Shown here: piece after piece, positions 3,200 to 48,426 of the stretch | Layout of the letters: each line of letters opens with the position of its first letter | How positions within the stretch are numbered: the first letter of the stretch is position 1 | Translations under genes and position numbers: made by a program | UHGV virus genome: UHGV-0310767 | Direction: 5' to 3' (one strand) | Origin: a virus | Length of the DNA stretch: 64,000 nucleotides | The notes under the pieces: model-generated | What the model was told of the DNA's origin: nothing | Seen by the model: only the letters and a program-made list of their open reading frames with translations | Database searches by the model: none

Positions 3200-4334
3200 C
3201 TATACACTCCTTGTTTTTATATAGTAAATTCCAAATTTCCTCACCCTTATCCGATGGAGAATCTTTATAATCAAGTAAGGGGAAATCATCGTCTGCATCG
3301 TATATTACATTTACTTCTGCAAATCCTTTAAATTTATCAGCTATAGCTAATACTTTCTTTTTCCATAAAATAAATTTTTCTGTAAGTTCTCCCTTTTCAT
3401 CATACATTTTTTCGTACTGTTTGTCAAGAGCAATATTTACTTTATTTATACCTAGTTTTAATAACATATCTCTACGTTTATTTTGTAGATTCATTCCAAA
3501 CATTCCGACAGTATTATTCAGAAATAATATATCATTCATCTGCATCACACTTTTAGGGGCTTCAAATAAAGTAACTTCTCCCGTATAGTCTATATTTGAT
3601 TTTGTTAAATTTAATCCATAAAGTACATTAGATGTATTAAAGCGAAATTCAGTTCCATGATTTCCCTTTTCATCAACTCCATTTACTAATTTCACAGGTA
3701 AATATTTATATCCTGCTTCAATTAATTCTGGAACTAAGTTTCTCCCATGTAATCCTATAAGATTTCCATTTTCATCAAATACAGGAATTACTATTTGTTG
3801 TGCATAAGGATAGAAACAAATCTCAAACATTTCCATAGTAGGAATACTAATTCCATCGTCTATAAATGATTGATGATATATTTTTGGGAAAAAATTTAAT
3901 ATACTTTTATCATAAGTTTGTATTAAAGATTCACCATTTTTAATTCTGATGTATCTTCCTAAATCTTCTTCCCAATCATATATTTTAGTAGTCTCTTTAT
4001 GGATGCGTTCAATATTATCATAAGGTATGTTACATACATCACATACAAATTTTAAAGCATCTGGAAAACTGCAAGTTTCTCCCAAAACTCTTTTACGCTT
4101 TTGTACTAAACTGTAAGGAGTATATGAAACACTACAATGATAACATAAAAAGAATTTTCTATCTTTATAGAAATAAAGTTTATTTTTTAATCCATCTGGA
4201 TTTTTTTCATGGCAAATATTGGAAAACAATATTTCTTTATCATTCTCATGGTCAATTGTAGCCCCTAATGCTAAAGCAATTTGTCTATAATTATCTATAG
4301 TTAATTGTTTAGTTAATTTTTTGGCATCAATCAT
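3141..4334 (-). CDS. DNA primase (DnaG-like; zinc-binding domain plus TOPRIM)
   Basis: 397 aa; CHEKNPD...CYHCSVS zinc-ribbon pattern like DnaG CHC2; TOPRIM-like EAPKSVMQ and DADDDF motifs. Confidence 0.65.
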   Translation of the reverse strand: MIDAKKLTKQLTIDNYRQIALALGATIDHENDKEILFSNICHEKNPDGLKNKLYFYKDRKFFLCYHCSVSYTPYSLVQKRKRVLGETCSFPDALKFVCDVCNIPYDNIERIHKETTKIYDWEEDLGRYIRIKNGESLIQTYDKSILNFFPKIYHQSFIDDGISIPTMEMFEICFYPYAQQIVIPVFDENGNLIGLHGRNLVPELIEAGYKYLPVKLVNGVDEKGNHGTEFRFNTSNVLYGLNLTKSNIDYTGEVTLFEAPKSVMQMNDILFLNNTVGMFGMNLQNKRRDMLLKLGINKVNIALDKQYEKMYDEKGELTEKFILWKKKVLAIADKFKGFAEVNVIYDADDDFPLLDYKDSPSDKGEEIWNLLYKNKECIDERESEEFKRYCKDKERSN

Positions 4335-15366: not shown

Positions 15367-16185
15367 CTATGCTAACTGCATATTAAGCATTACATTTTTC
15401 ACAGTTTCTTCTGTATTATGAGAATATCTCTGAGTAGTAGAGATATCAGAATGACAAATTACATCTTTAGCAATATTGATTCCATACTCATTACATATCT
15501 CACTAACATAAGTATGTCTTAAAGTATGATTACTAATATGTTCTTCAATATCTGCTTTTTCTGCAACCTTACGTAACATTTTAGAAATACAATCCCTTCT
15601 CATTGGGGTGCCATGATTACTAACAAATAAGTTAGGGATTCCTGAATTTTTACGTACTTTTATATATTCGTCTACAATTTTCCTACATTCTTCATTAAAG
15701 TATATTTTTCTCTCCCTATCCCCTTTAATTTTAATGGTTACAGTTTGAGAATTATACTGCTCTAAACTTAAATTAATAAGTTCACTAACACGCATACCCG
15801 TAGAAAGATATATAGCAATAATAGCTTTATCTCTAGGATTGCTGGCTTCTGTTAATAAGTTTTTAGCTTCCTTCATAGGAACATAGTCTTTCTTTTTATT
15901 CTTAATTGTTGGAGATTTTATTGTTGTTGCTGGGTTTAATGTCATAGTACCAACCTTACATAAAAAGTCATAGTAACTTTTTATAGCTGTAAGCTTTCTA
16001 GCGATTGTAGCACTGGCGTACCCTCTTTTAACCATCTCTGATTTCCAGTCATAAACTTCTCCATATGTAATTTTTGTTTCTTCTGTATTTACAAAATCAA
16101 AAAATTGATTAATGTCACTTTCGTAAGAAATTCTAGTATCTTCACTTTCAAACCCACCTAAAAATCTTTTAATATTGTTATTCAT
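15367..16185 (-). CDS. tyrosine site-specific recombinase (XerC/D-like integrase)
   Basis: 272 aa; C-terminal HTLRHTYVSE...HSDISTTQRYSH catalytic motif. Confidence 0.75.
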   Translation of the reverse strand: MNNNIKRFLGGFESEDTRISYESDINQFFDFVNTEETKITYGEVYDWKSEMVKRGYASATIARKLTAIKSYYDFLCKVGTMTLNPATTIKSPTIKNKKKDYVPMKEAKNLLTEASNPRDKAIIAIYLSTGMRVSELINLSLEQYNSQTVTIKIKGDRERKIYFNEECRKIVDEYIKVRKNSGIPNLFVSNHGTPMRRDCISKMLRKVAEKADIEEHISNHTLRHTYVSEICNEYGINIAKDVICHSDISTTQRYSHNTEETVKNVMLNMQLA

Positions 16186-28160: not shown

Positions 28161-28457
28161 CTAGGCTTTGTCTATCTTTTTTCTTATAAATTCTATTATC
28201 GCTTTAGTTTCTTCCCAAAATCTCGCGTTACTTTCTGCATTTTTATACTTTGGCTTCCCGTCTTCGTCTTTTTCTTGTGCTAATTTCGCCCATGCTTTCG
28301 CTTCCTCGTTTCTATAATTTGTACTCATAAGTAAATATGATGTCAGGCTATTCCATTGCCCTTTTGTAAGTGTTACTGTTTTTTCCTCTGCTTCCCACTT
28401 TTCCAAGTCTTTTAATTCTTCCGTTGTTAATTTTTCCATTTTTATAACTCCTTTCAT
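28161..28457 (-). CDS. hypothetical protein
   Basis: 98-aa ORF. Confidence 0.35.
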   Translation of the reverse strand: MKGVIKMEKLTTEELKDLEKWEAEEKTVTLTKGQWNSLTSYLLMSTNYRNEEAKAWAKLAQEKDEDGKPKYKNAESNARFWEETKAIIEFIRKKIDKA

Positions 28458-29174
28458 CTTTTATTTAGTTAAATGTATTTACATTTGTCAATGTACATTA
28501 TAATACCATTCACCTCATACTTTCTTATATATTGGATACGGCAGAACGCCTATAACTTATGTTTCCGACTTGGAAGAGATATTTATTTTTGATTGTGTCG
28601 TGTTGACCACGGTTATACAATACCGCTTACACAATTTCCTGTCAATATGTAAAAATAACTAAATTGCAATCAATTTATTATACATAATAGCTAAAAATAA
28701 ATAGTTGAAATGTTGCAAAAATCACAGTTAGTAATGCCTATTGGTACATTCATATACATATACGTCCACACAATTTTATTTTATTGTATATAATCACATG
28801 TCAAAAAATACCCCTAAAACTTATGCAAAGTGTACAATTATATATGCCTAACTTAAATCATGCACAAAAACCATGTAAGAAAAAATATTTATTTTGTCTA
28901 TTATTTATATTAGCATTCTGAAAAAGTAATCTGATAATTCCCAACACTTTCAGAATTGATTAAATTGTGTTGCCCCATTATCGCACTATTAAATGTATTA
29001 GTCCCCAATAGTTTTAATATACATCAAATCTCGCTACTGTTTAAAAGAATTATCTGATAACTTATTGGGCCAATATACAATTCAATTTAAGTTGCGTATA
29101 GAATTTAAAAGATTGTATATAATTATAAATACAAAACTTGATACCATTAAATTAAATAAGGAGGAATAATATTC

Positions 29175-29471
29175 ATGAGTAACAAATATCAGACAATTAG
29201 AGAAATTTATATTGACCTTTACATTCGCAATAAAGCCATTGTAAGGGCCAACAAGAAAGAAAAACCAGAGGATTTTCCTATTATTAAGGTAAGTGGAAAA
29301 CGGCTCATGCAATTGTCCAGGATGAATTTTTTAAGGAGGAAAGAGATAACCAATGATTTTTCTAATGGTTTACTCACTGATAAGGGATACAAAGAAGAAA
29401 TGACTATTTGCCAATATATTAGTTATCAGATAACCAATACAGAACATTCACAGAAAATTTTGTTTGTTTAG
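29175..29471 (+). CDS. hypothetical protein (lone plus-strand gene; possible regulator)
   Basis: 98 aa; strong RBS AAGGAGGAATAATATTC-ATG; TTATCNGATAA palindromes upstream and inside its 3' end. Confidence 0.45.
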   Translation: MSNKYQTIREIYIDLYIRNKAIVRANKKEKPEDFPIIKVSGKRLMQLSRMNFLRRKEITNDFSNGLLTDKGYKEEMTICQYISYQITNTEHSQKILFV

Positions 29472-29869
29472 AAATTTTTTGCTAATAAAATCACGTCTTT
29501 CAGATTTTTTATCTGTCTAGTTTTTTCTTAATGTTTTATTATGTGCAAATTGTGTTTAGTGCTTCTCAAAACGTGCAGTATTTAAAAGATAGATTAGTAC
29601 TATACGATTACACAAGCACTAAATGCGATTTGCATATACAATTTCAATTACTTTTTCAATAGGTGTGACTGTATAGGCCATTCAAATAAAACCATTACCA
29701 AAATCCCCATTGTCAGATAATAACATAGTATAGCATACTACGTATCATAGTTTCGATTGGAAAAGGGTGAGTGATAATATATGAGGGTAAAAACTAAAAG
29801 CCCAGGAAATGGCCTTTAAACGCTTTACAGGGCATGTTGACATAATAAGAGCGCGGGATTCCACCTCTA

Positions 29870-31450
29870 TATATTATAATAGATTATATATAATGATGGG
29901 ATTAATAAGTGAATATGATAAGTGGAAGTGCTTACAAATTGTGTGGGAATTGTGTAGGATTATGTAAACCTTTATGTTAGCACTGTCAATAGGTGAGTGC
30001 CAAAAGGTAAGTAAATGATTACAATAAGTATGTGGTGATTATCGACAACGATTTATATTTTGTGGCTGTGAATTGTAAATAGGGATTCATAATTCATAGT
30101 GGATGATAGTAAACACTTGCTTACTATATGGAGAGGGCAGAGGTACATATAATATAATATTATATAATATATAATATGAAAATGAAAATAGGAATCGTTA
30201 TCAATATGTTTCACGTGGAACAATAGGTGGGGAATATGGATGAATGTGTGAGCGTGCAGAGGATGGTATAAAGGAGTACAGAGATGTTACAAGGGCGTGT
30301 ATGGGGTGATGTGGACAATTGTGTAGGGATGGGGTGATTGTGGGTATATGGGCGTTGTACTGCGTGATAGGGAAGATGGGAGATTGAGGGATGGAGAATG
30401 TAAGGGGATTGTGGGGAGAATGTGGGGATAGGGTGGATGGAGATAAGGGAGAGTGTAGGATATGTGAGTGAGAGGATGGAGAAAATGGAATGGGAAGATA
30501 TAGGAAAGTATAGGGTGAGAGGTGGGAAGTGTAGGGAGATATGGGAGAGGTGAGAGTGGGAGAATGTGGGTGAATGTATCTCATATTTTGAGGGTTCGCC
30601 ATTACCCTATTATAATATATACATATGTACTCTGTGACATTTCGGACGGACTGAAAACGCTTTCAACCAATACTTTTCATTAGGTAGCGTCAAAAAATTA
30701 ACAAAAACTCAAGGTTTTACCTTAAAAGTGTACATAATATGTATTATGGACGCTTTTTGGATATGGATACACCAACTGCGCATCCCCCCATTCCCCGGCC
30801 TTTTGGCAATTGTCAGAAAATTCACCTTAGATGGGGGGGTACTTTCAGACAATTCGGATATACGAATTTCAAGAATGAGGTATAGCTGTCCCACCACGAA
30901 CTATTTCACTATCTCACCCTCCATCTCATTTATTAATATATATTAATATACTATTATATATTATATTTATATATACCCCTCTATCCCCCTCCTATCTCCC
31001 CTCTCCTATCCATCTCCCACTCAACACATCCCCTACCCTTCCCCCATACTTTTAAAATTTAATTTTAACTCTACACCCTATCCCTTACACTACTATAATT
31101 TATACCACTCCCCTCAGTTTCCCCTATACCTTTCCCTACACTTTTAATCTTCCCTACTCAACTGCACTTTTTATCAATACTTCCGCACCTTGCCTACCTC
31201 AACTTTTTCAATCTCCATTGACGGCAACTCCAATTTTTTCATAAATCACTTCTACGCCTTACACTTTTTAGTAGCACCCCTCTAATTTTCATAACAATTC
31301 AGTACCACTTTTAACCACCCCAAAATTGAGCAAAATTTCTCAAAAATTTTTTGATGCCACCCAAATTTTGGAATCTTAAGCCCCATTCTGATTTGAGCGG
31401 ATTGTGGTGTGATTCTGTCTGGTTACAACCTCATACACGCCATATCTGGC
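29870..31450. other. strand-asymmetric noncoding block: plus strand G/A/T-rich and nearly C-free (about 29870-30600, pure over about 30370-30588), ~350-bp centre, then C/A/T-rich and nearly G-free (about 30960-31450)
   Basis: direct reading of base composition; G3+ tract clusters (e.g. gggatggggtgattgtgggtatatggg); C7...G7 inverted tracts at the centre (about 30786-30850). Confidence 0.6.
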
Positions 31451-31654
31451 CCTTTTACATCTTATCGTGACCAATCCTCCATTTCGCCTATTGAGCCGCT
31501 TCTACTCTCTTGTACTCGTTCATATTTTTTTAAAAATTAAATTTAAAAAAAGAGAACCGACTAAATTCGATTCTCTTATAAGCGTTTTAAGTTTATTTTT
31601 CTAAACATTGCTAAATATAAAGTTTTTATTTAAATCTTTTTTTATTACAATTTA

Positions 31655-32221
31655 TCAATGATAGCCGTTTTCTCTGTCCCACACTTTTCTGTAGTGGTCG
31701 AACATGCCAATATCTGCCGCAAAACTAGTAGTATAGATTGCATCAATATCAAAACTATCATCTTCATCTTCTTCATTGTTTCGATTGGTCAAATCGCTTT
31801 TGTAGGTGTTTAAATCCATCCATCCATGACCATTTAATCTGCCGCTTGTTCCAATGCCCCGTAACACGCCAGTACTGGAAACTGGGGTATTTTTCATATC
31901 TGTATTAAGCATTACTAAATATAAACTTCCGCTTCGTGTCTCCACAATCATTCCTGACTTTAGGAAATCTTTGGGGGCGATATCTTCTTCTTTTGGAGGG
32001 GCCGGGATTGGGGCCGTGTCTGTGAACTGAATATGCTCCACTCTGGGGATTACCATTTTTCCGCTGGGGAGTTTTACCAAGGCAACAGGATATTGTCCTA
32101 ACGAACCTCCTGTCTGATAATCCTTATCATAATTGGTGCTAAAGCCGCAAAACTCGCCGTCTTTGAAAAGTACATATCCTAATTTTTCATCCCAATATTT
32201 ACCACAACATTTACCTTCCAT
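31655..32221 (-). CDS. hypothetical protein
   Basis: 188-aa ORF. Confidence 0.4.
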   Translation of the reverse strand: MEGKCCGKYWDEKLGYVLFKDGEFCGFSTNYDKDYQTGGSLGQYPVALVKLPSGKMVIPRVEHIQFTDTAPIPAPPKEEDIAPKDFLKSGMIVETRSGSLYLVMLNTDMKNTPVSSTGVLRGIGTSGRLNGHGWMDLNTYKSDLTNRNNEEDEDDSFDIDAIYTTSFAADIGMFDHYRKVWDRENGYH

Positions 32222-38332: not shown

Positions 38333-38339
38333 ATTTAAC

Positions 38340-39146
38340 CTCCTTTTAGTCTATTTTATTTTAATAATAACAGAATATAATATAAATGTCAATATGTAAT
38401 TTTTTATTATATATTTTATATTATATGTATATTAATTAAATATATGTATAATAATTATATAATATTATAAAATATATAAATATAATATAATTAATAATAA
38501 TTTATATTTAATTAATATTGTTATTACTAATTCCCCAAAATATTTGTATTGTTATTTTAGTTTTTTTGCAAGCAAAAAAACCAAATAACGAAAACAAATA
38601 TTTTTTCAATTGATATAATTAATATTTTTTATAAACATAAATTCACAAATTTCTTGGTTTTATATATAATAATAGTTATCTATAAACAATTACTAATATA
38701 AATTTATATAACTCTTTCCACTTCGTTACAAGAGTTATATAAATTTCTAAAGTAATTGTAATTATATCTAATTATTATTATATATAAAACAGAAATTTAT
38801 AAATTTATATAAAAAATATTAATTATATCAATTGGATAGGGGTATTTTTTATATAATAATTATATAATTAATAATATATAATATATATTATTTATATTAT
38901 TAAATATATTATATATTATTATATTTTATAATAATATTTATATATTATATTTTATATATAGTATATAGTATTACCTCCGAATTTTTTCTTATACCGTTAT
39001 TTTTTAAAAAATTTTTTATGTAATAAAAACAATTAATAAAATTAGTATAAAATGTCTTTATTTTTTAATATTAAAATATATATTGACAAAATTGTATATA
39101 TAATATATAATACAATCATCACAAGAAATATTAAGAAAGGGACAAT
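38340..39146. other. ultra-AT-rich (about 10 percent GC) divergent intergenic region with perfect inverted repeats; candidate origin or switch region
   Basis: 16-bp perfect IR aatttatataactctt (38701-38716) / aagagttatataaatt (38730-38745), 13-nt spacer; palindrome tttttttgc-aa-gcaaaaaaa (38561-38580); many (ATATAAT)n-like repeats. Confidence 0.4.
39083..39111 (+). promoter_or_regulatory. consensus sigma-A promoter for RNAP gene (TTGACA-N17-TATAAT)
   Basis: ttgaca 39083-39088, tataat 39106-39111; 35 nt before ATG 39147. Confidence 0.55.
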
Positions 39147-41642
39147 ATGCAAAATAGTAGAAGAAAAATATTTAAGATTTCTACAGAGAGATTAGCTTCT
39201 AACAATTGGGATATTAAGTTAGACCAAAAATTAGCTGTAAGGTTAGATGAATTAGTAGATTTATTTGATAATCAGTCTTTTAGGTTGTTGGATATTATTT
39301 CCAAAGCTTACAAATCCAATCTTACAGATAAAGTGCTGGCAGTAGAAATATCTAAGAAAAAAGATTATGCCAGGGCTACTTCTCCAAAAGGCATTTATGT
39401 AAATGGTTTTAATTTCCAATGGTTTGTAGGAACTACAGGAGGATTGAAAAATGAAACTATTTTATTTGTTCGTTCTGACCTTTTAGGAGAATTAGACAAA
39501 AGATGTGAATGCGGCAGAAAAAAAGATTATAAACTGGTTCCTGCAAAGTATGAAGCTTATAAATCTCTTACTTGTTCTGCATCTTTAGAAATTGTGGAAC
39601 CTAGAGATGTACTTGTGGTTTCTGATTGTTTTGTTGATTTTTATGACAGTGTAATCAATATAGATGATACTAACAATGATGAACCAGAAGTAACAATATT
39701 GGAAAATATTTTACTTAAAAATAATGGCAGTGATGGTTTAAATTTATGTACGCCAGAATATATGCAGAGAGTAGCAGAAAAGCTTAAGTTAGATTATATT
39801 CCTGCTGGTGGTTGTTTAAGAAATGCGTGGCTTAAAGGAATGCTGTATGTGTTCGATATTCTTGATTTTGCTGAGAAAATAGCCCATACTTACGAAGTGA
39901 AAGATATTTGGGGGCATATTCATGATATTCGTAATGTGGATATGATTATTACAGAATCCAGTTTAAAGATTTGGGATAATTATGATAGTTGGGAAGATTA
40001 TCATAGCAATTATATAAAAAATGGTTATCGTTTTGCCATGACTAAAGTTACACCTAAAGTTTTGGATGATGTAAGAGAAATAAATTATCAGTACTTACAA
40101 TCTTACGAATTGACAGATGAAGATATTAAAGAGTTGGCTAAACCTACTGTTGATTGGCTTAAGCAATCTTTGACTGGCGATTATGAACAAACTTTAAAAT
40201 TTCTGGGAATAAGTGAAAAAACAAAGAGTAATGATTATGCACAAGCATTATATCTTAATCCAGAAATGATGAAAGACCCTTATGTAATTGACAGAATTAA
40301 TAAAATGATAAAGAAAAAAATCAATAATGCTAAGATTGGTAAATTATTGGTTAATGGAAATTATCAGCTTGTAAGTGGCGACCCTTATGCTTTAATGCAA
40401 CATGTTTTTGGGTTAGAAGTTACAGGTCTTTTAGAAGCAAAAGAAGTTTATTCCAAATATTGGAATGATAAAGAAGATGCAGAAGAATTAGTATGTTTTC
40501 GTAGTCCTATGACAAGTCATAACAATATTCGTAAAATGAAAAGAATTAATAATGATACTGTGAATTATTGGTATCGTCATATGGATACTATATTTATTAT
40601 TAACAACAAAGATACGTTTTGTATGGCTATGAATGGTTGCGATTTTGATGGCGATGCTATTTATTCTACAAATAATAAAGTTTTATTGAGAAAGTATGTA
40701 GAATTATTAGCTATTCAGTGTGTTCAGCGTAAAGCCCAAAAACAAATTGTTACTAGGTCTATGATAAAAAAGAGCAATTACAAAGGATTGGGAAATGGGG
40801 TTGGTAAAATTACCAACGATGTATCCAGTATGATTGATATTCTCTTTGGGTTACAAAAGGGTACAATTGAGTACGAGACACTTTACAAACGTATTCTATG
40901 TGGTCAGCTATTCCAACAGAACGAATTGGATAAGTTGAAGGGAATCATTGCAAAAGATATGCCTAAAAACTGGTATATGAAAAATCATTGCCAAACAGAA
41001 TTAGATTTAGCTATTGTAGCTGATAAAAAGCCTTATTATTTTATGTATAATTATCCTGTCATTAAAAGAGATTATGATAATTACATTAAACATACAAGAG
41101 AAAAATGTTTAATGATATATGGATGTACTGTGGAAGAATTGAAAAATAAAGAAAATTTAACAAAAGAAGAAGAAGAATTTTTATATTGGTATAATGTTCA
41201 AATGCCAGTTAATTGTTCTCCATCTACAATGAATCGTTTATGTTGGTATATTGAATCTGAGTTTAATGGATATGTTACTCAACTAAAGAATCAAAATTTT
41301 GATTATTCTTTTTTAAAGAGTGATAAAGTTATTCGATATCCAAAAGCAAAAAAAGAAGAAATTGAAAAATTAGAAAAAGAATATGTACGCAGAATTAAAA
41401 ACTTTAAAATAATTGCTAAAGAAAATAATTTATCTGCCGAAGAAGCAAATAAAAAGACAGAAGTATTACAGCAGGAATTTAGAGATGAAGCAATAAAGAT
41501 TTGTTCTAATAAGTGGCAGTTAATGAATATAGTATTAGATTTATGCTATGGAAAGAATAAGAACAAATATTTTTGTTGGGCTGTTATTGGAGATTTAATA
41601 ATTGAAAAATTAAAAGAAGATGGAGAGAAAGAAAATGAATAA
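39147..41642 (+). CDS. YonO-like single-subunit two-barrel (DPBB) DNA-dependent RNA polymerase
   Basis: 831 aa (YonO about 840 aa); AMNGCDFDGDAIY carries the beta-prime-type DFDGD catalytic motif; first gene of late arm. Confidence 0.55.
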   Translation: MQNSRRKIFKISTERLASNNWDIKLDQKLAVRLDELVDLFDNQSFRLLDIISKAYKSNLTDKVLAVEISKKKDYARATSPKGIYVNGFNFQWFVGTTGGLKNETILFVRSDLLGELDKRCECGRKKDYKLVPAKYEAYKSLTCSASLEIVEPRDVLVVSDCFVDFYDSVINIDDTNNDEPEVTILENILLKNNGSDGLNLCTPEYMQRVAEKLKLDYIPAGGCLRNAWLKGMLYVFDILDFAEKIAHTYEVKDIWGHIHDIRNVDMIITESSLKIWDNYDSWEDYHSNYIKNGYRFAMTKVTPKVLDDVREINYQYLQSYELTDEDIKELAKPTVDWLKQSLTGDYEQTLKFLGISEKTKSNDYAQALYLNPEMMKDPYVIDRINKMIKKKINNAKIGKLLVNGNYQLVSGDPYALMQHVFGLEVTGLLEAKEVYSKYWNDKEDAEELVCFRSPMTSHNNIRKMKRINNDTVNYWYRHMDTIFIINNKDTFCMAMNGCDFDGDAIYSTNNKVLLRKYVELLAIQCVQRKAQKQIVTRSMIKKSNYKGLGNGVGKITNDVSSMIDILFGLQKGTIEYETLYKRILCGQLFQQNELDKLKGIIAKDMPKNWYMKNHCQTELDLAIVADKKPYYFMYNYPVIKRDYDNYIKHTREKCLMIYGCTVEELKNKENLTKEEEEFLYWYNVQMPVNCSPSTMNRLCWYIESEFNGYVTQLKNQNFDYSFLKSDKVIRYPKAKKEEIEKLEKEYVRRIKNFKIIAKENNLSAEEANKKTEVLQQEFRDEAIKICSNKWQLMNIVLDLCYGKNKNKYFCWAVIGDLIIEKLKEDGEKENE

Positions 41643-42576: not shown

Positions 42577-42933
42577 ATGGCAAAGAAAGTAATTAAGGTA
42601 ACTAACATGACTTCCGCAGAGATGGTAAAGGCTGTTGCGGCAAAATCTGGGGCTACTCAGGTTCAGACTAAGAATGTTCTGGATGCTATGGGTGAGGTTT
42701 GCCGGGAGTGTGCCGCCGCTGGTAAGCAGTTTAATCTGTTTGGATTCGGCAAGTTAAAGTTTGCTATCGTCAAGGGCAAACCTGAGAGAGAAGGAATTAT
42801 CAATCCCAGCACCGGGGAAATGGGTACTCTCCCAGCAACACCTTCTTATACGAAGCCTGTATTTAGGGTTTCTAAGAGTTTAGCAGACGAAATTAAAGAA
42901 TCCACCAAGGGCTGTCCGTTTGTCCAGGAGTAA
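42577..42933 (+). CDS. HU/IHF family DNA-binding protein
   Basis: 118 aa; GFGKLKF...REGINPSTGE...P.FR.SK.L matches HU/IHF arm; GC-rich. Confidence 0.75.
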   Translation: MAKKVIKVTNMTSAEMVKAVAAKSGATQVQTKNVLDAMGEVCRECAAAGKQFNLFGFGKLKFAIVKGKPEREGIINPSTGEMGTLPATPSYTKPVFRVSKSLADEIKESTKGCPFVQE

Positions 42934-42991
42934 TAATTTTTAAAAATAAATTTTAATTATTATTATTTTAATGTGAAGATTGGAGATTTTT

Positions 42992-43486
42992 ATGGCAAAG
43001 ACAGGAGCGTCTAAAGCGAATGCGTTGACCTTAAGAGAAATCTCTGACCGTTTAGCCGTTTCAGTGAAGAAGCAAGGAAAGAAAATAACTTCTGAAACGG
43101 CTAAACTTTGCTATTTGGCTTTTGTTGAATTGATGGCTGATGAAATAAAACACAATGGAAAGTTCAGTATTACCAATATAGGTAGTTTTGAAACTGAAAT
43201 GCGTGGAAGTTATACTAGGAATAGTTTTAATGTGCAGACCAGAGAATACACTTTAGAAACTGTTCCAGAAGTTGTAATGGTTAGATTCAGACCATCTCCA
43301 TATATAAAGGGATATATCAATAACAAAGAAGTTCCTTTAAGTATGGGCAGAAGGAATAGAGAAGTTGAGAAAGAGATAAAAAGAGGTAGCACCAGAAAAG
43401 AATTGCTGGAAAAAGAAATGAAAGCAAAAAAAAGGCAGAAATATGAGAAACTTATTCAACCTACAGAAGTTGAAGTAGATGATTAA
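42992..43486 (+). CDS. second HU/IHF-like protein with basic C-terminal extension
   Basis: N-terminal 100 aa follow the HU fold pattern (LTLREI...GKFSITNIGSFE...R..RN....E....V.FRPS..IK); ATG at 42992 with GGAG RBS. Confidence 0.5.
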   Translation: MAKTGASKANALTLREISDRLAVSVKKQGKKITSETAKLCYLAFVELMADEIKHNGKFSITNIGSFETEMRGSYTRNSFNVQTREYTLETVPEVVMVRFRPSPYIKGYINNKEVPLSMGRRNREVEKEIKRGSTRKELLEKEMKAKKRQKYEKLIQPTEVEVDD

Positions 43487-44566: not shown

Positions 44567-45140
44567 GTGAAAGAAGAAAATAATGAAGAAATTGAGTTGA
44601 TAAAACCAACTATAACTCAATTAATCGAAGAAAGAAAAAGGAAAAATTTAGAAAAGAGAAAAAGAAATCAGAAAAAACCATATGAGCAGAGAAGAAAAAA
44701 TATTATAGAATGGGCTACATTTTATAGACGAAATTGGAATCTTTATGCTGTTCATAGATTAATGATTTCTTTATATCCATTTCAGCATATTATGCTTTAT
44801 TTGATGGGTATAAGTAGTACCTTTTTTGCTATTTGTAGTAGAGGTTTGAGTAAAACATTTATTGTTGCATTAGGTGCTTTAATTCATGCTTTACTTTATC
44901 CTTATGCAGAAGTTGTTATTACTTCTTCTACAATACCACAGGCAAAGAAAATGGTAGAAAAGAAAATGGAGAATGAACTTTGTAAAAAACTTTCTCCTGT
45001 ATTACAATATTATTATGATAACGAAGATATAAAATTTTCGTATAATGATAATGAGATAAAAGTAGAAGTTAAGCCGACAAGTTCAACTATTTTAGTACTT
45101 CCTTGTTTGGACTCGGCTAGAGGTGAAAATAATTTTAGAA
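44567..45140 (+). CDS. terL: terminase large subunit, exon 1 (ATPase N-part with Walker A-like SRGLSKT); 3' boundary approximate
   Basis: GTG start with AGGAGGG RBS; reading frame runs into intron and stops at 45160. Confidence 0.55.
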
Positions 45141-46277
45141 GTGAAATATTATATAATTAAATCTTTAAGAGAGGAAAATATAATATAATGAGAAAAGAAT
45201 GGAATGATTCTGAAATAGAATTTATAAAAGATAATTTACAAAAGTTATCATTTGCTGAAATGGCTGTACATCTTAATAGAACAAGAAACTCAGTTCAATT
45301 AAAGTGTTCAAAAATGGGAATTAAAAAGGGTAGTAAGTATTTTTACAATAAAGATTATTTTGAAAAAATTGATAGCGAAGAAAAAGCTTATTGGTTAGGT
45401 TTTATTGCTGGGGATGGATATATAGTTAAAGCAGAAAGAAATGCTGAATTAGGCATAGAATTGAATGAAATAGATTATGAACATTTAAAGAAATTTAATA
45501 AATGTTTAAAAGGAAATGTTGAAGTTGGATTTAGGAAAAGATTTGATGAAAGAACTAAAAATGAGTATAAAATGTGTTTCATTAGATTTTATTCTAATAA
45601 ATTAGTTGACGATTTGATTAAATTGGGTATTACTCCTAATAAATCTTTATCTATTTGTTTTCCAACTATTCAACAAAAATATTATGTTCCATTTCTAAGA
45701 GGATATTTTGATGCTAATGGATGTATTTCATTTAATAAAAAAAGGAATTGTATAAGTTGTGATTATGCATCTGGTTCTATAGATATGATTAATTCTTTAA
45801 GAAAAATTTTATTTGAAGAATATGGAATAAATTCTTATATAATTCAAGAGAAAACTAAAACTATAAGACTTTATATTAAAGGAATGAAGAATGCTTTTAA
45901 TTTTTGTAATTTAATTTATAAAGATAGCAATATTCATTTACCTAGAAAATATAATAAGTTTTATTTGTTAACTAAAGAATGTAATATAGAACAAAGGATT
46001 AAATAAAAATAGAGTTGCACAACTCGCCTCTCTGGTTGGTGACAATCAGTAAAAATAAATTGGGAAAGAAATCTGGAAACCTGAAATGGTAATCAGAATG
46101 GAAGGATATGTGTAATAGCATATTCACATGCAGAGCGTAGACATTGAACCTGTTTGAATCAGAATATAATATGTCCAAGAGTTCCCAACCCTTTAAATAT
46201 AAAGGTGAAAAGGTACGCCGACCTTGCTAGAAATACAATAGCAAGAACTATGGGATAAAAAGCCTATAGGATAACAT
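45141..46277 (+). mobile_element. group I intron 1 in terL carrying a LAGLIDADG homing endonuclease gene; boundaries approximate (within about 50 nt)
   Basis: HEG with own RBS; downstream core has R-like cagagcgtagac (46131-46142) and S-like tataatatgtcc (46165-46176); in-frame stop at 46272 just before exon 2. Confidence 0.55.
45188..46006 (+). CDS. LAGLIDADG homing endonuclease (intron-encoded)
   Basis: 272 aa; LGFIAGDGYI and LRGYFDANGCIS motifs; GAGAGG RBS. Confidence 0.75.
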   Translation: MRKEWNDSEIEFIKDNLQKLSFAEMAVHLNRTRNSVQLKCSKMGIKKGSKYFYNKDYFEKIDSEEKAYWLGFIAGDGYIVKAERNAELGIELNEIDYEHLKKFNKCLKGNVEVGFRKRFDERTKNEYKMCFIRFYSNKLVDDLIKLGITPNKSLSICFPTIQQKYYVPFLRGYFDANGCISFNKKRNCISCDYASGSIDMINSLRKILFEEYGINSYIIQEKTKTIRLYIKGMKNAFNFCNLIYKDSNIHLPRKYNKFYLLTKECNIEQRIK

Positions 46278-47036
46278 TTGGAACGTGCAACTTTATTAAT
46301 ATATGAAGAATGCAGACTTTTGAAGAAAACTATAATTGATAGTGTTTTCCAAAAAATGGCACATCCACGTCAAGCTAAATTCTTAACTTTACCAGAATAT
46401 CAAGATGAAGATGGAAAACCACTGTCTCGATGGTTGGAGGAATGTAAATCAGTTTATATTACTTCTGCAAGATTTAAGATTGAATGGTTTTGGACAGAAT
46501 TTAAAAAAGTAGTTCAACAATGTATGATATCTTCAAAACATAAGTATAATTTCTTTGCTGGAAATATATTCTTGGCTATATTGTTTGGTTTGAAAACATG
46601 GCAGGATTATTACCATGCTAAAGAATTTGATGGTGAAATAGACCATAAAACAGAGGATTTGAATGAAATGATAGGAGAAGCCGATGGGGCATTCTTCTCT
46701 TTGGAATCGTTTAAAAAGAATCAAACTATTATTACTGCTTTTAAACCTCCTACTTTATTGGATTTATATTCTGATGTAGATTTAGGAAATAGGGTTAAGA
46801 AAGAAAATGAAAAACGTTTGATTTTTATTGACTACGCTTTTGCGAATACTACATCAAAATCTAAGAACGATAACAGTGTTATTGGTTGTATGTCTGTTAT
46901 TTTTAGAGATGATGGAAAAACTTTAAGAGAAATAGATTATATAGGTACTCACCCAGCAGGAGATAGTATAGGTTTCAACTTGAAAATTAGAGAATTTTTC
47001 TTTGATTATCAAGCTGACTATATTGTATTGGATTAA
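46278..47036 (+). CDS. terL: terminase large subunit, exon 2 (Walker B LLIYEE, C-motif ITSAR, start of nuclease domain IFIDYAF); 5' boundary approximate
   Basis: 252-aa ORF segment between two introns. Confidence 0.55.
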   Translation: MERATLLIYEECRLLKKTIIDSVFQKMAHPRQAKFLTLPEYQDEDGKPLSRWLEECKSVYITSARFKIEWFWTEFKKVVQQCMISSKHKYNFFAGNIFLAILFGLKTWQDYYHAKEFDGEIDHKTEDLNEMIGEADGAFFSLESFKKNQTIITAFKPPTLLDLYSDVDLGNRVKKENEKRLIFIDYAFANTTSKSKNDNSVIGCMSVIFRDDGKTLREIDYIGTHPAGDSIGFNLKIREFFFDYQADYIVLD

Positions 47037-48426
47037 TTCTGAGGTCCACTTTTATGGTGACATAAAATGAATAAATGTGTTGAATTGCTGGAAACCCCTA
47101 AAGCCACATGAACCACAACGTAAGTATGAAATAAGACTAAGCGTGATGGTGACGAAAGTAGAAAGAATCATGTGGATGGCATAAGGTTAAATCCTAAGTG
47201 CTTTAAAATGGGCAATCAGCCGCCAAGCTCTGAATAGGAGAAGGTTCAACGACTATCCCGCAAGGGAGTACACTGCAAGCGATTGGCAGTGGAAGTGGCA
47301 CACATCTTATGAAATTAAGATGAAGATATAGTCTGCTCTATATGGAAACATATAGTATCTAACGTGTAGCGGCGTTTTCTTAACTTATAAAAAGTAAATA
47401 AGACAGAGGGTAGCTCCCTTTTCTTGTACTGCAATACAGGATTATTATTTACTTTTTATCATATCTTTTTGCAGAAAGGTTTAAGGTAGAAATTATGAAA
47501 ATTTGGGAAGTAAATTCTAGTAAGCGTTTTAGTTTTGGTTGTATTTATTTATGGACTAATCTTATTAATGGTAAACATTATGTTGGACAGACAGTTAATT
47601 TTTATCAACGTATTCAACGATATAAGAAAGGTTTAATTAATTCTTATATGAAAGAAGATATTGATAAATATGGTATGGAAAATTTTAAAGTTGAAATATT
47701 GGAAAAAAATAGAAGATATTTCAAATGAAGATTTTCTTACTGAAAGAGAGCAATATTGGATGGATTATTATCAGTCTTATGATTTAGAAAAAGGCTATAA
47801 TATATTTGATGTTGCTGGCAATGTCTGTTATTTAAAACGTAGTGATACTATTAAAGAAAGATTTTGTGGAGAAGGAAATGGAATGTATGGTAAACATCAT
47901 TCTGATGAATGGAAACAAAATCATTCTGATTGCGTAAAAGGTTTGTGGGAAAAAGAAGAATATAGAAAAGTTCAGACAGAAAGGATGCAAGGAGAAAATA
48001 ATCCTATGTATGGGGTATCTTTAGATGGTGAGAAAAATGGAATGTATGGTAAACATCATTCTGATGAAACCAAAAGAAAGATAGCTGAAAGTAAAATAGG
48101 GAAAACTCATGCACCTACTCATTTTAAAAGAGTGAGATGTGTTGAAACTGGAAAAATCTATAATAGTCAGAGTGAAGCCGCACAAGAGTATGGCATAACT
48201 CAGGCCGCAATCAGTGCAGTTTGTAAAGGTAAAAATAAGACAGCCAAGAAAATGCATTGGGAATTTGTAGACTAATCTCAAAAATAGTAATAGAAACAAT
48301 ACAAGACTTAGAAATGGTGGTGAAGTAAACTATAATGACCTTACTACAATTCTTGAACATCCACAAAGAGATGAAAAGCATTGGAATAGTCATGGTTTTA
48401 CAGTTTCTTATGAAGAAAGATTACAT
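47037..48426 (+). mobile_element. group I intron 2 in terL carrying a GIY-YIG homing endonuclease gene; boundaries approximate
   Basis: canonical R element ggttcaacgactatccc (47242-47258) and S element gaagatatagtc (47332-47343) upstream of the HEG. Confidence 0.6.
47495..48275 (+). CDS. GIY-YIG homing endonuclease with NUMOD3-like repeats, split by a +1 frameshift at an A7 tract (47703-47709); possible pseudogene
   Basis: ORF1 CIYLWTN...KHYVGQT...R GIY-YIG core; ORF2 carries the EDISNEDFLTEREQYWMDYY...GYN continuation and GxxNGMYGKHHS NUMOD3 repeats; an A6 tract would make a single ORF. Confidence 0.65.

Follow-up and report, generated by a model that had tools for sequence, protein, structure and literature searches.

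A noncoding block of 1.6 kb (29870-31450) lies within the window analysed here, a stretch of 64,000 nucleotides (nt; 64 kb) of virus genome UHGV-0310767 numbered along its plus strand. The window belongs to a siphophage of Enterocloster bolteae of the PMBT24 type, being 96-99% identical to PMBT24 (OQ326496.2) around the block (97.8% as a single value), and is also related to five CB phages. The block consists of three parts: an arm in which the plus strand is composed of G, A, and T (G arm), a centre of ~320 bp, and an arm in which the plus strand is composed of C, A, and T (C arm). A 34-bp palindrome with a dif-like core is found at the midpoint between the arms, and the phage encodes a tyrosine recombinase of Xer type. 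The block may be a cis-acting genome-maturation locus in which a lox/dif-like site for the phage recombinase is placed beside the packaging (pac) site; the probability of this interpretation is put at roughly 0.4.

The block is present in all 14 close relatives of the window and in one distant clade, defined by an RNA polymerase that is 64-66% identical. Relatives that cover the region include six isolated phages, three IMG/VR contigs, and several metagenome contigs, and each of these keeps the three-part architecture, with a G arm of ~350-400 nt, the centre, and a C arm of ~300-400 nt. The recurrence of the same architecture in six isolated phages and many independent metagenome contigs excludes an assembly artefact, a possibility raised in the first-pass annotation, a reading of the DNA from its letters alone. 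The features of the locus are given in Table 1.

Table 1. Features of the block, its borders, and the associated genes, in window coordinates
Feature	Position	Strand	Remarks
Xer-like tyrosine recombinase gene (272 amino acids)	15367-16185	minus	Part of an SPbeta-like replication module; palindrome 14.5 kb away
98-amino acid gene	29175-29471	plus	Transcribed toward the G arm; sole plus-strand gene in a 38-kb minus-strand region
Terminator-like hairpin with T run	29794-29819	minus	Left border of the block
Outer zone of moderate G skew	29870-30146	plus	G/C ~20-26 / 7-8 per 100 nt; sequence well conserved
Left AT-only tract, (ATATA/ATATAAT)n repeats	30147-30178		Conserved in all close lineages
Near-palindrome TATGTTTCACGTGGAAC	30206-30222		Distant clade has a version, AATGTTTCACGTGAAACATT, within the equivalent arm
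G arm	30223-30580	plus	G/A/T-only, ~42% G; C-free core 30364-30579
Equivalent of the PMBT24 PhageTerm terminus (pac)	30571-30582		Inner edge of the G arm
Module 1, GAGGGTTCGCCATTACCCT (AGGGT/ACCCT 5-bp inverted repeat)	30590-30608		Identical in the close clade but for single-base changes in two sequences
34-bp palindrome AAAAGTGTACATAATATGTATTATGGACGCTTTT	30724-30757	minus	Midpoint between the arms; putative target of the phage Xer-like recombinase
Module 3	30801-30870		Inverted repeat AATTGTCAGAAA / TTTCAGACAATT (30808-30854); G7 30833-30839; C6 30775-30780 just upstream
C arm	30899-31300	minus (G-rich strand)	Plus strand C/A/T-only; G-free run 30899-31116
Right AT tract	30925-30975		Only in the window/CB457P1 lineage; absent (deleted) in the CB473 lineage
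Intrinsic terminator, 11-bp stem with T run	31550-31577	minus	Ends the right-hand minus-strand operon before the C arm

Composition and polarity of the arms

The extreme strand asymmetry noted in the first-pass annotation is real. Plus-strand GC skew, calculated in 100-nt windows, ranges from +0.59 to +1.00 at 30200-30599 and from -1.00 to -0.65 at 30900-31299, compared with about -0.2 in the flanks. The longest run without C in the whole window (216 nt; 103 G, 69 A, and 44 T) falls in the G arm, and the longest run without G (218 nt) falls in the C arm; at base frequencies of ~16%, the chance expectation for either run in 64 kb is ~1e-12. The stretch 29870-30600, described as having almost no C, contains 41 C against 242 G; 30960-31450, described as having almost no G, contains 34 G, most of them beyond 31300, against 159 C. 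Two C residues, at 30580 and 30582, are present in 30370-30588, which was said to have none. On both sides of the centre the G-rich strand, which is the plus strand at the left and the minus strand at the right, runs 5' to 3' toward the centre, and this polarity is found in all lineages of both clades.

In the close clade, what is conserved in the arms is composition. When 13 sequences are aligned over the C-free core of this arm in the G half, 170 of the 226 columns are variable, and C is present in only six of those columns; alignment of low-complexity sequence at 60% identity is uncertain and may inflate the count of variable columns, but C is missing however the sequences are aligned. T/C columns, which are the commonest class in the centre (32 columns), occur only once in the G-arm core. 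The C arm mirrors this rule for G. The arms are rich in insertions and deletions (7, 5, 3, 7 nt, and more) among the relatives, many of them in the C arm, while the centre has at most seven gap columns. The outer part of the C arm carries CACTTTT(T)A repeats. The G fraction is nevertheless nearly constant across lineages, at 0.40-0.42 in one arm and 0.33-0.37 in the other. This combination of drifting sequence and fixed composition indicates selection on alphabet and polarity, not on sequence, and the skew cannot be a mutational footprint over 400 bp because G is enriched to 42%, rather than C merely being lost. The arms have thus long been held to one rule, no C on the strand running to the core, across clades with ~65%-identical RNA polymerases.

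The outer zone to the left differs in that its sequence is retained, with a mean column identity of 85% across 29480-30160. At its inner border lies the left AT tract. The two AT tracts were earlier taken to give the block a rough mirror symmetry; the tracts exist, but each is located to the left of its own arm, an arrangement of translational symmetry, and the real dyad axis is the palindrome centre at 30740/30741. In one metagenome contig (OOAF01001937.1), 97.8% similarity to the window stops exactly at the left AT tract (~30150), with unrelated DNA beyond, and the tract appears from this comparison to be a boundary of mosaic recombination.

Two canonical G-quadruplex (G4) motifs are found in the window, both in the G arm, at 30326-30352 (the motif quoted in the first-pass annotation) and at 30404-30433; none is found on the complement of the C arm. 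The motifs of the G half are therefore present as described, but not as a conserved property. G4Hunter maxima of 1.56-2.32 persist in all lineages; it is doubtful that G4 formation is a selected property of the arms. Tandem arrays in the arms are limited to 2-3 copies of 10-11-nt units, with no conserved iterons. A large hairpin between the arms was considered and rejected, the best inverted matches being only 70-73% across 22-27 nt; the arms are complementary in composition, not in sequence.

The absence of credible coding capacity in the block is upheld by the insertions and deletions of 7, 5, 3, and 7 nt among the relatives, and by the conserved DNA of the centre, which falls in different frames in different lineages. 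An open reading frame (ORF) of 133 codons on the minus strand (30201-30602) was discarded as a low-complexity artefact of G-free sequence that carries non-triplet indels, and ORFs of 48-72 codons in the centre were rejected for non-triplet indels and for the change of frame of the conserved DNA between lineages.

Assembly of these gut phages tends to fail at the block. Of seven metagenome contigs found by the module-3 pattern, six end ~50-620 nt from the pattern, at positions scattered within the block; the breaks tend to fall in the arms, probably from strain heterogeneity or poor sequencing of skewed DNA rather than from a single physical end.

The central palindrome and the phage recombinase

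The centre has a fixed length and contains three modules that are common to lineages whose spacers are otherwise unalignable; the spacers between arms and palindrome are non-homologous between lineages. Measured in 12 sequences of the close clade, the G arm ends 161.5-162.5 nt before the palindrome centre, and the C arm, counted from the first base of the G-free run, begins 156.5-159.5 nt beyond it. The palindrome itself is flipped between lineages, the CB473-type 34-mer being the exact reverse complement of the CB457P1-type, and modules 1 and 3 keep their orientation. Of the hairpin of C7 and G7 proposed earlier for the centre, the G7 run is present, in module 3, and pairs with the C run in a DNA fold, but the C run has six residues and is missing from the CB473 lineage. 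A structured noncoding RNA, another of the functions suggested at first, finds little support, with no Rfam match at the gathering threshold or at E<=1 across 28400-31700 and z = -1.1 for the centre folded as RNA.

On the minus strand the core of the palindrome (30727-30754) reads AGCGTCCATAA TACATA TTATGTACACT, which is the 11-6-11 arrangement of dif; the two 11-bp arms match at 9 of 11 positions as an inverted repeat, and the right arm, TTATGTACACT, can be compared with the common Firmicutes version, TTATGTAAACT. A position weight matrix was built from published dif sites of Firmicutes (44 distinct sequences; Kono et al., 2011; PMC3025954, Additional file 2). With this matrix the core reaches 20.5 bits, compared with 2.0 bits for the second-ranking independent site in the 64 kb; the maximum per shuffled window (n = 30) has a mean of 5.5 and a standard deviation of 4.2, with a highest value of 14.7. 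The match of the core to dif is clearly non-random but falls at the lower edge of the range of genuine sites. The site is also single-copy: no further site in the window exceeds 3.6 bits, and the best other match in the sampled 79% of PMBT24 is a half-site of 11.8 bits, with the equivalent of PMBT24 positions 24-45 kb covered by the window.

The same layout is found in the distant clade, at five loci anchored on a GmrSD-like gene; the 10 kb upstream of the RNA polymerase gene of this clade contains no block within that stretch, and it was the GmrSD-like anchor that located the block. The distant G block is ~400 nt long (3681-4100 in locus L056), with G/C counts per 100 nt of 36/4, 26/3, 36/3, and 34/5, and the counts for the C block are 1/30, 4/37, and 3/36. 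The palindrome between them, AAAACATG(T/G)CTATAAT-AAATC-ATTATAGACAC, has inverted arms (...CTATAA and TTATAG...) around a 7-bp centre, TAAATCA, so that ATAA and TTAT are separated by 7 nt, compared with 6 nt in the clade of the window. Its distance from the G block is 155-158 nt at three loci and, by the boundary rule, ~235 nt at the other two; from the C block it is 161-186 nt away. Module 1 was not found in the distant clade; of module 3, the segment GGTACTTTCAGACAATTCGGATATACGA is conserved even there, and AAATCGTATATACGAATTGTCTGAAAATA(C)CCCC is conserved next to the arm. A recombinase of 267 amino acids, 53-59% identical to that of the window, is encoded on metagenome contigs of ~95-104 kb that have the gene order of the distant clade and are other contigs than those carrying the block loci. 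As judged from these sequences, recombinase and palindrome appear to have diverged together, with the order arm, ~160 bp, palindrome, ~160 bp, arm retained. For a remoter recombinase homologue (43% identical, on a 115-kb contig), no block was found in the 20.6 kb sampled, which includes 9.8 kb upstream of the recombinase gene.

Other features were observed in the distant clade. Three or four direct repeats of the CATAAACCC(A/T)TTA type, spaced ~30 nt apart and iteron-like, are located just outside the C block (4890-5010 in L056). A gap 7-8 kb upstream of the RNA polymerase gene (1636-2955 in L026 and 2312-3230 in L019) contains tRNA-like sequences and a stretch of ~700 nt that is highly conserved between the contigs.

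The recombinase of the window matches Pfam Phage_integrase (7e-30) and a SAM-like N-terminal domain, and its match in the PDB is XerA (5hxy, 4e-27); the motifs GMRVSEL, KGDRER, HTLRHT, and YSH align with the XerA motifs in that structure. Matches to the NCBIfam models for XerA (4e-52), XerD (4e-51), and XerC (4e-50) are below the equivalog cut-offs (177 versus 220 for XerA), indicating that the phage recombinase is a separate lineage; in PMBT24 it is annotated as 'site-specific recombinase XerD'. The gene is kept at 41-59% identity on phage-sized contigs of ~95-116 kb. Only the SAM-like N-terminal and catalytic domains are recognized, which is taken to mean that the protein is without the additional domain with which lambda-type integrases bind arm DNA. 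Acting alone, the recombinase XerA uses an 11-6-11 site without FtsK (PMC5357621). The phage protein, with XerA, XerD, and XerC as its best family matches, resembles the enzymes of such single-recombinase Xer systems (archaeal XerA/dif, XerS/difSL, and XerH/difH), and the near-palindromic core would suit a homodimeric enzyme, as in those systems.

A tyrosine recombinase and a dif-like core are also the formal make-up of an integrase/attP module, in which the palindrome would be the attP and integration would occur at a dif-like site of the host, as it does for integrative mobile elements exploiting Xer (IMEX) and some temperate phages. This alternative is highly improbable. None of 185,579 species-representative genomes contains the core 20-mer, and no integrated copy was seen; the module-3 20-mer has only three matches in the same genomes, in unrelated bacteria and without further similarity. 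Because no integrated copy was found and PMBT24 is reported to be virulent (PMC11035940), the recombinase is unlikely to be a lysogeny integrase. Its two-domain architecture, its distance from the palindrome, and its position in the replication module are further arguments against an attP.

A putative genome-maturation locus

The only published statement on this region concerns packaging. For PMBT24, one significant PhageTerm peak (tau>0.1) was obtained on one strand, from which the authors concluded that packaging is of the headful pac type, and they let the genome map begin at that pac site (PMC11035940). The cut in the OQ326496.2 record corresponds to window positions 30581/30582; the table coordinates of the PMBT24 paper are those of the reverse complement shifted by 10 nt, and their position 1 corresponds to window position 30571. 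The mapped end is thus 8-19 nt from module 1 and ~150-170 nt from the palindrome. That paper describes neither the block and its arms nor the palindrome and a link between palindrome and recombinase, and a literature search found no description of such arms. Among the functions listed in the first-pass annotation, a recombination or packaging site has gained most from these comparisons, given the PMBT24 terminus at the edge of the G arm, the dif-like palindrome at the midpoint, and the Xer-like recombinase of the phage.

In the proposed mechanism, the core, with its two 11-bp inverted arms and 6-bp spacer, would be the target of the phage recombinase, and the ~160 bp on either side, with the conserved modules, would be accessory or architectural DNA. 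By analogy to P1 Cre/loxP-pac and to Xer/dif, headful packaging would start at the block, and recombination between two cores would circularize terminally redundant injected genomes or resolve replication multimers. The arms (350-420 bp), with their many short G runs, would be strand-polar boundary or guide elements rather than sequence-specific sites, and may halt or guide something that tracks along the DNA toward the centre. Candidates for such a tracking machine are RNA polymerases that read through from the convergent neighbouring genes and meet an R-loop- or G4-prone G-rich non-template strand, and a DNA translocase or helicase-nuclease that enters at the pac cut. At a double-strand end in the centre, it would be the G-rich strand that terminates in a 3' end on either side, the orientation in which Chi and telomeric repeats are active.

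Two known systems are the nearest analogues, P1 Cre/loxP-pac in function and chromosomal dif in anatomy. In P1, Cre acting on loxP near pac reportedly circularizes terminally redundant genomes and resolves multimers (work of Sternberg and co-workers and of Lobocka et al. in 2004). Like P1, the phage of the window would package by headful, has its own tyrosine recombinase, and carries a putative palindromic target for it near the packaging start. The loxP site has a 13-8-13 structure, is located kilobases from pac, and has no skewed arms; in the block, the core is only ~150-170 bp from the mapped end and the recombinase is Xer-like, not Cre-like.

At chromosomal dif, FtsK-orienting polar sequences (KOPS) converge on the site and GC skew changes sign there (PMC5357621). 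The block shares with the dif zone a 28-bp core of 11-6-11 layout, which at dif is recognized by Xer-family recombinases, G-rich polar flanks that run 5' to 3' to the core, and a flip of skew at the core. It differs from the dif zone in having polar zones of 0.4 kb, instead of ~10 kb or more, that are extreme in composition (no C for 216 nt) and without a defined octamer, neither GGGNAGGG nor GAGAAGGG being consistently found. Other differences are that it resides in a virulent phage with its own single recombinase, that its core is nearly palindromic and occurs in either orientation, and that it is located away from the genome-scale skew switch. A further comparison is with the plasmid sites cer and psi; cer uses ~280 bp and accessory proteins (PMC5357621), and the ~160-bp flanks of the palindrome are comparable to this accessory DNA (280 bp in total). 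Unlike in cer and psi, the accessory DNA would be on both sides and bounded by polar arms, and no sites of PepA/ArgR type were identified.

A number of observations weigh against the block being a recombination site beside pac. The action of the recombinase on the palindrome is deduced from sequence, and the gene is 14.5 kb away. Real dif sites score 20.4-42.9 bits (leave-one-out, median 34.2), placing the 20.5 bits of the core at the bottom edge; the commoner allele, TTATGCACACT, scores only 13.5 bits, and the Firmicutes matrix gives no score to the palindrome of the distant clade, in which the spacer has 7 nt (best match -1.2 bits). AT-rich palindromes with ATAA-N6-TTAT gain dif score from their palindromic inner part, for which shuffled windows do not control, and the palindrome could equally be an operator for another dimeric protein. 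With respect to packaging, the pac assignment is one peak on one strand in one phage, which may reflect a nick or, at such a G-rich boundary, an artefact of library preparation that depends on structure; a pac site is expected in or next to the terminase genes, but the start of the large terminase gene, at ~44.5 kb, is 14 kb off. Cyclization of the Cre/lox type requires that the core be within the terminal redundancy of the first headful, and the direction of packaging is not recoverable from the PMBT24 coordinates. With respect to the arms, no k-mer enrichment is shared by the two arms of the two lineages tested. KOPS (GGGNAGGG) number 0-1 per G arm and 0-3 per C arm and SpoIIIE recognition sequences (SRS; GAGAAGGG) 0-1. 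The periodicity of G in the arms is weak (~8-11 nt; peaks at 8.0, 9.5-10.75, and 11.5), with z-scores inflated by relatedness. A conserved G4 of four tracts (G3+N1-7) was not found, and three lineages (L031, L032, and L005) have no canonical G4 in either arm, a result that also weakens the G4-dependent function proposed at first. Finally, no conserved promoter was found, with 26 promoter-like matches compared with 21.6 +/- 4.5 in shuffles.

Some of the same evidence can be accommodated by a pac region alone, in which the arms are degenerate arrays for binding or wrapping by the small terminase subunit or by the two HU-like proteins of the phage, the central modules are the cleavage region, and the likeness of the core to dif is coincidental. 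The end mapped in PMBT24 agrees with this explanation, as do the weak 8-11 nt periodicity of G and the two HU-family genes just upstream of the terminase genes. The bipartite layout recalls the P1 pac, with hexamer repeats on both sides of the cut, and the pacL/pacC/pacR arrangement of SPP1, and SPbeta-like phages, which have the RNA polymerase and replication genes in common with the window, package from a pac marked by a conserved block of ~250 bp. This explanation is nonetheless unlikely, as the arms are motif-free and drift in sequence and length, unlike known sequence-specific terminase sites; the block, at 1.2-1.6 kb, is several-fold bigger than known pac sites; and no small terminase subunit was identified, with the large terminase gene ~14 kb distant. 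It also leaves the exact centring and deep conservation of the palindrome and the presence of an Xer-like recombinase unexplained.

If the block is a recombination site beside pac, then a virulent gut phage of 100 kb uses its own Xer-like recombinase and a dif-like site next to its packaging start, which would extend the logic of P1 Cre/lox to a new phage family and to Xer-type enzymes. DNA of restricted alphabet at a fixed distance from a putative recombination site is an undescribed element, and the pair of arms is a component without precedent. G-rich zones with strand asymmetry and a tendency to form R-loops or G4 are found in immunoglobulin switch regions, the ColE1 origin, and mitochondrial conserved sequence block II (CSBII). 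The arms resemble these zones in that composition is kept and sequence is not, and in their clustered G runs on one strand and degenerate short repeats; they differ in that canonical G4 motifs are not conserved, that two zones of mirror polarity surround a putative protein-binding palindrome, and that the promoter scan gave no signal above shuffles.

The pair of composition-locked polar arms could be a new type of cis element. Quite speculatively, the arms would belong to a new class, strand-polar 'guide rails' that are encoded by composition without a motif and that direct or arrest some machine tracking along the DNA at the dif/lox-like site of the phage; candidates are a host translocase of FtsK/SpoIIIE type, a helicase-nuclease of AddAB/RecBCD type that enters at the pac cut, the terminase, and a lid-less YonO-like RNA polymerase. 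Were this doubtful proposal correct, the phage would carry a miniature, exaggerated chromosome terminus that couples packaging, end protection, and site-specific recombination. The block is also a compact natural system (1.2-1.6 kb) for strand-asymmetric G-rich DNA in bacteria, with relevance for R-loops, G4, Rho loading, and translocase orientation.

Flanking genes, transcription, and replication

The block is located within a 3.2-kb gap that is nearly devoid of genes. Minus-strand genes occupy the window up to 38.3 kb and plus-strand genes follow beyond 39.1 kb; both larger gene clusters flanking the block are on the minus strand. The convergence of gene ends on the block described earlier holds for the immediate neighbours, a 98-amino acid gene on the plus strand that ends at 29471 and a 188-amino acid gene on the minus strand that ends at 31655. 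PMBT24 carries 1.1 kb of extra DNA (1076-2174 in locus L002) relative to window positions 31649-31659, between the block and the 188-amino acid gene, including a plus-strand ORF of 176 codons.

The 98-amino acid protein is 95% identical between lineages in which the block DNA is ~60% and the surrounding DNA ~60-75% identical, and its gene may belong to the block locus. Some relatives have an internal deletion of 18 residues in the protein, and the gene is absent near the block in the distant clade. No match was found in Pfam, PHROG, or NCBIfam, and only three homologues, all from this clade, were identified; an AlphaFold model from the single sequence, a three-helix bundle (pLDDT, the per-residue confidence, 80.7 in one of five models), has no fold match in the PDB (best E = 0.78). 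Downstream of the gene by 70 nt is a conserved hairpin of ~31 pairs (29545-29633, plus strand), for which there is no Rfam match. Lineage differences in the hairpin change G-U pairs to G-C or A-U, and pairing is kept only on plus-strand RNA, which indicates that transcription heads toward the G arm; the hairpin may be a 3'-untranslated region structure, a processing site, or a small RNA.

An 831-amino acid protein (39147-41642, plus strand), called an 'RNA-dependent RNA polymerase' in the PMBT24 annotation, carries the motif GCDFDGDA and has no sequence match in Pfam, NCBIfam, or the PDB. The motif is typical of two-barrel, YonO-like DNA-dependent RNA polymerases, and the protein is probably of that kind. 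YonO is without the flap involved in hairpin termination and without the lid that prevents R-loops (PMC5467207).

These features of transcription raise the alternative that the block is an insulator separating the early and later gene clusters, in which the G-rich non-template strand, through R-loops or G4, stalls RNA polymerase, and the G-free, C-rich RNA that follows beyond the centre loads Rho; the palindrome would then be an operator for a phage regulator, perhaps the 98-amino acid protein. The flanking genes converge, a terminator is present on each border, and the hairpin downstream of the 98-amino acid gene shows transcription toward the G arm. The DFDGD motif likens the RNA polymerase of the phage to YonO, which lacks flap and lid. 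The order of G-rich followed by C-rich is identical from both directions. Selection on composition rather than on sequence is the behaviour of Rho-loading sites and R-loop zones; to our knowledge, however, the exclusion of one base over >200 nt goes far beyond known Rho-loading sites. Promoter-like matches are no commoner than in shuffles, the CB473 lineage does not share the outward-facing candidate promoters, and a good hairpin terminator already ends the right-hand operon. With the 160-bp geometry and the mapped DNA end also left unexplained, an insulator is a rather improbable account of the block.

The intergenic region at the strand switch (38333-39146) has ~22% GC and contains two runs made up solely of A and T, at 38391-38526 (136 nt) and 38830-38973 (144 nt); the records of CB phages and several IMG/VR contigs start or end within it. 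It is a candidate for an origin, an early-promoter region, or an assembly break point. The block itself had been proposed as a replication origin or terminus, that is, an origin primed by an R-loop or D-loop or a site of fork convergence, in which the arms would be unwinding zones and the palindrome an initiator site. AT tracts adjoin the G-rich zones, the polarity of the arms is that of GC skew around a bacterial terminus, the recombinase gene is within the replication module, and direct repeats of the CATAAACCC type are found just outside an arm in the distant clade. The proposal is weakened by the lack of a conserved repeat unit or iterons in the arms and by a right AT tract that is specific to one lineage. 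The strand and skew switch at 38.3-39.1 kb, with its long A/T-only runs, is a more conventional origin candidate, and for a terminus the block is only ~8 kb from that switch on a 100-kb genome. Nor can so strong a skew over 400 bp, with G enriched to 42%, be a mutational footprint. An origin or terminus at the block is thus decidedly improbable.

The two HU-family genes (42577-43486) follow the RNA polymerase gene and precede the terminase genes. The large terminase gene (44567-47355) is interrupted relative to PMBT24: an endonuclease-like ORF of 272 codons (45188-46006) is located between the terminase fragments, and a group I intron (Rfam RF00028, 96.6 bits) is found at 47025-47355 within the interrupted region.

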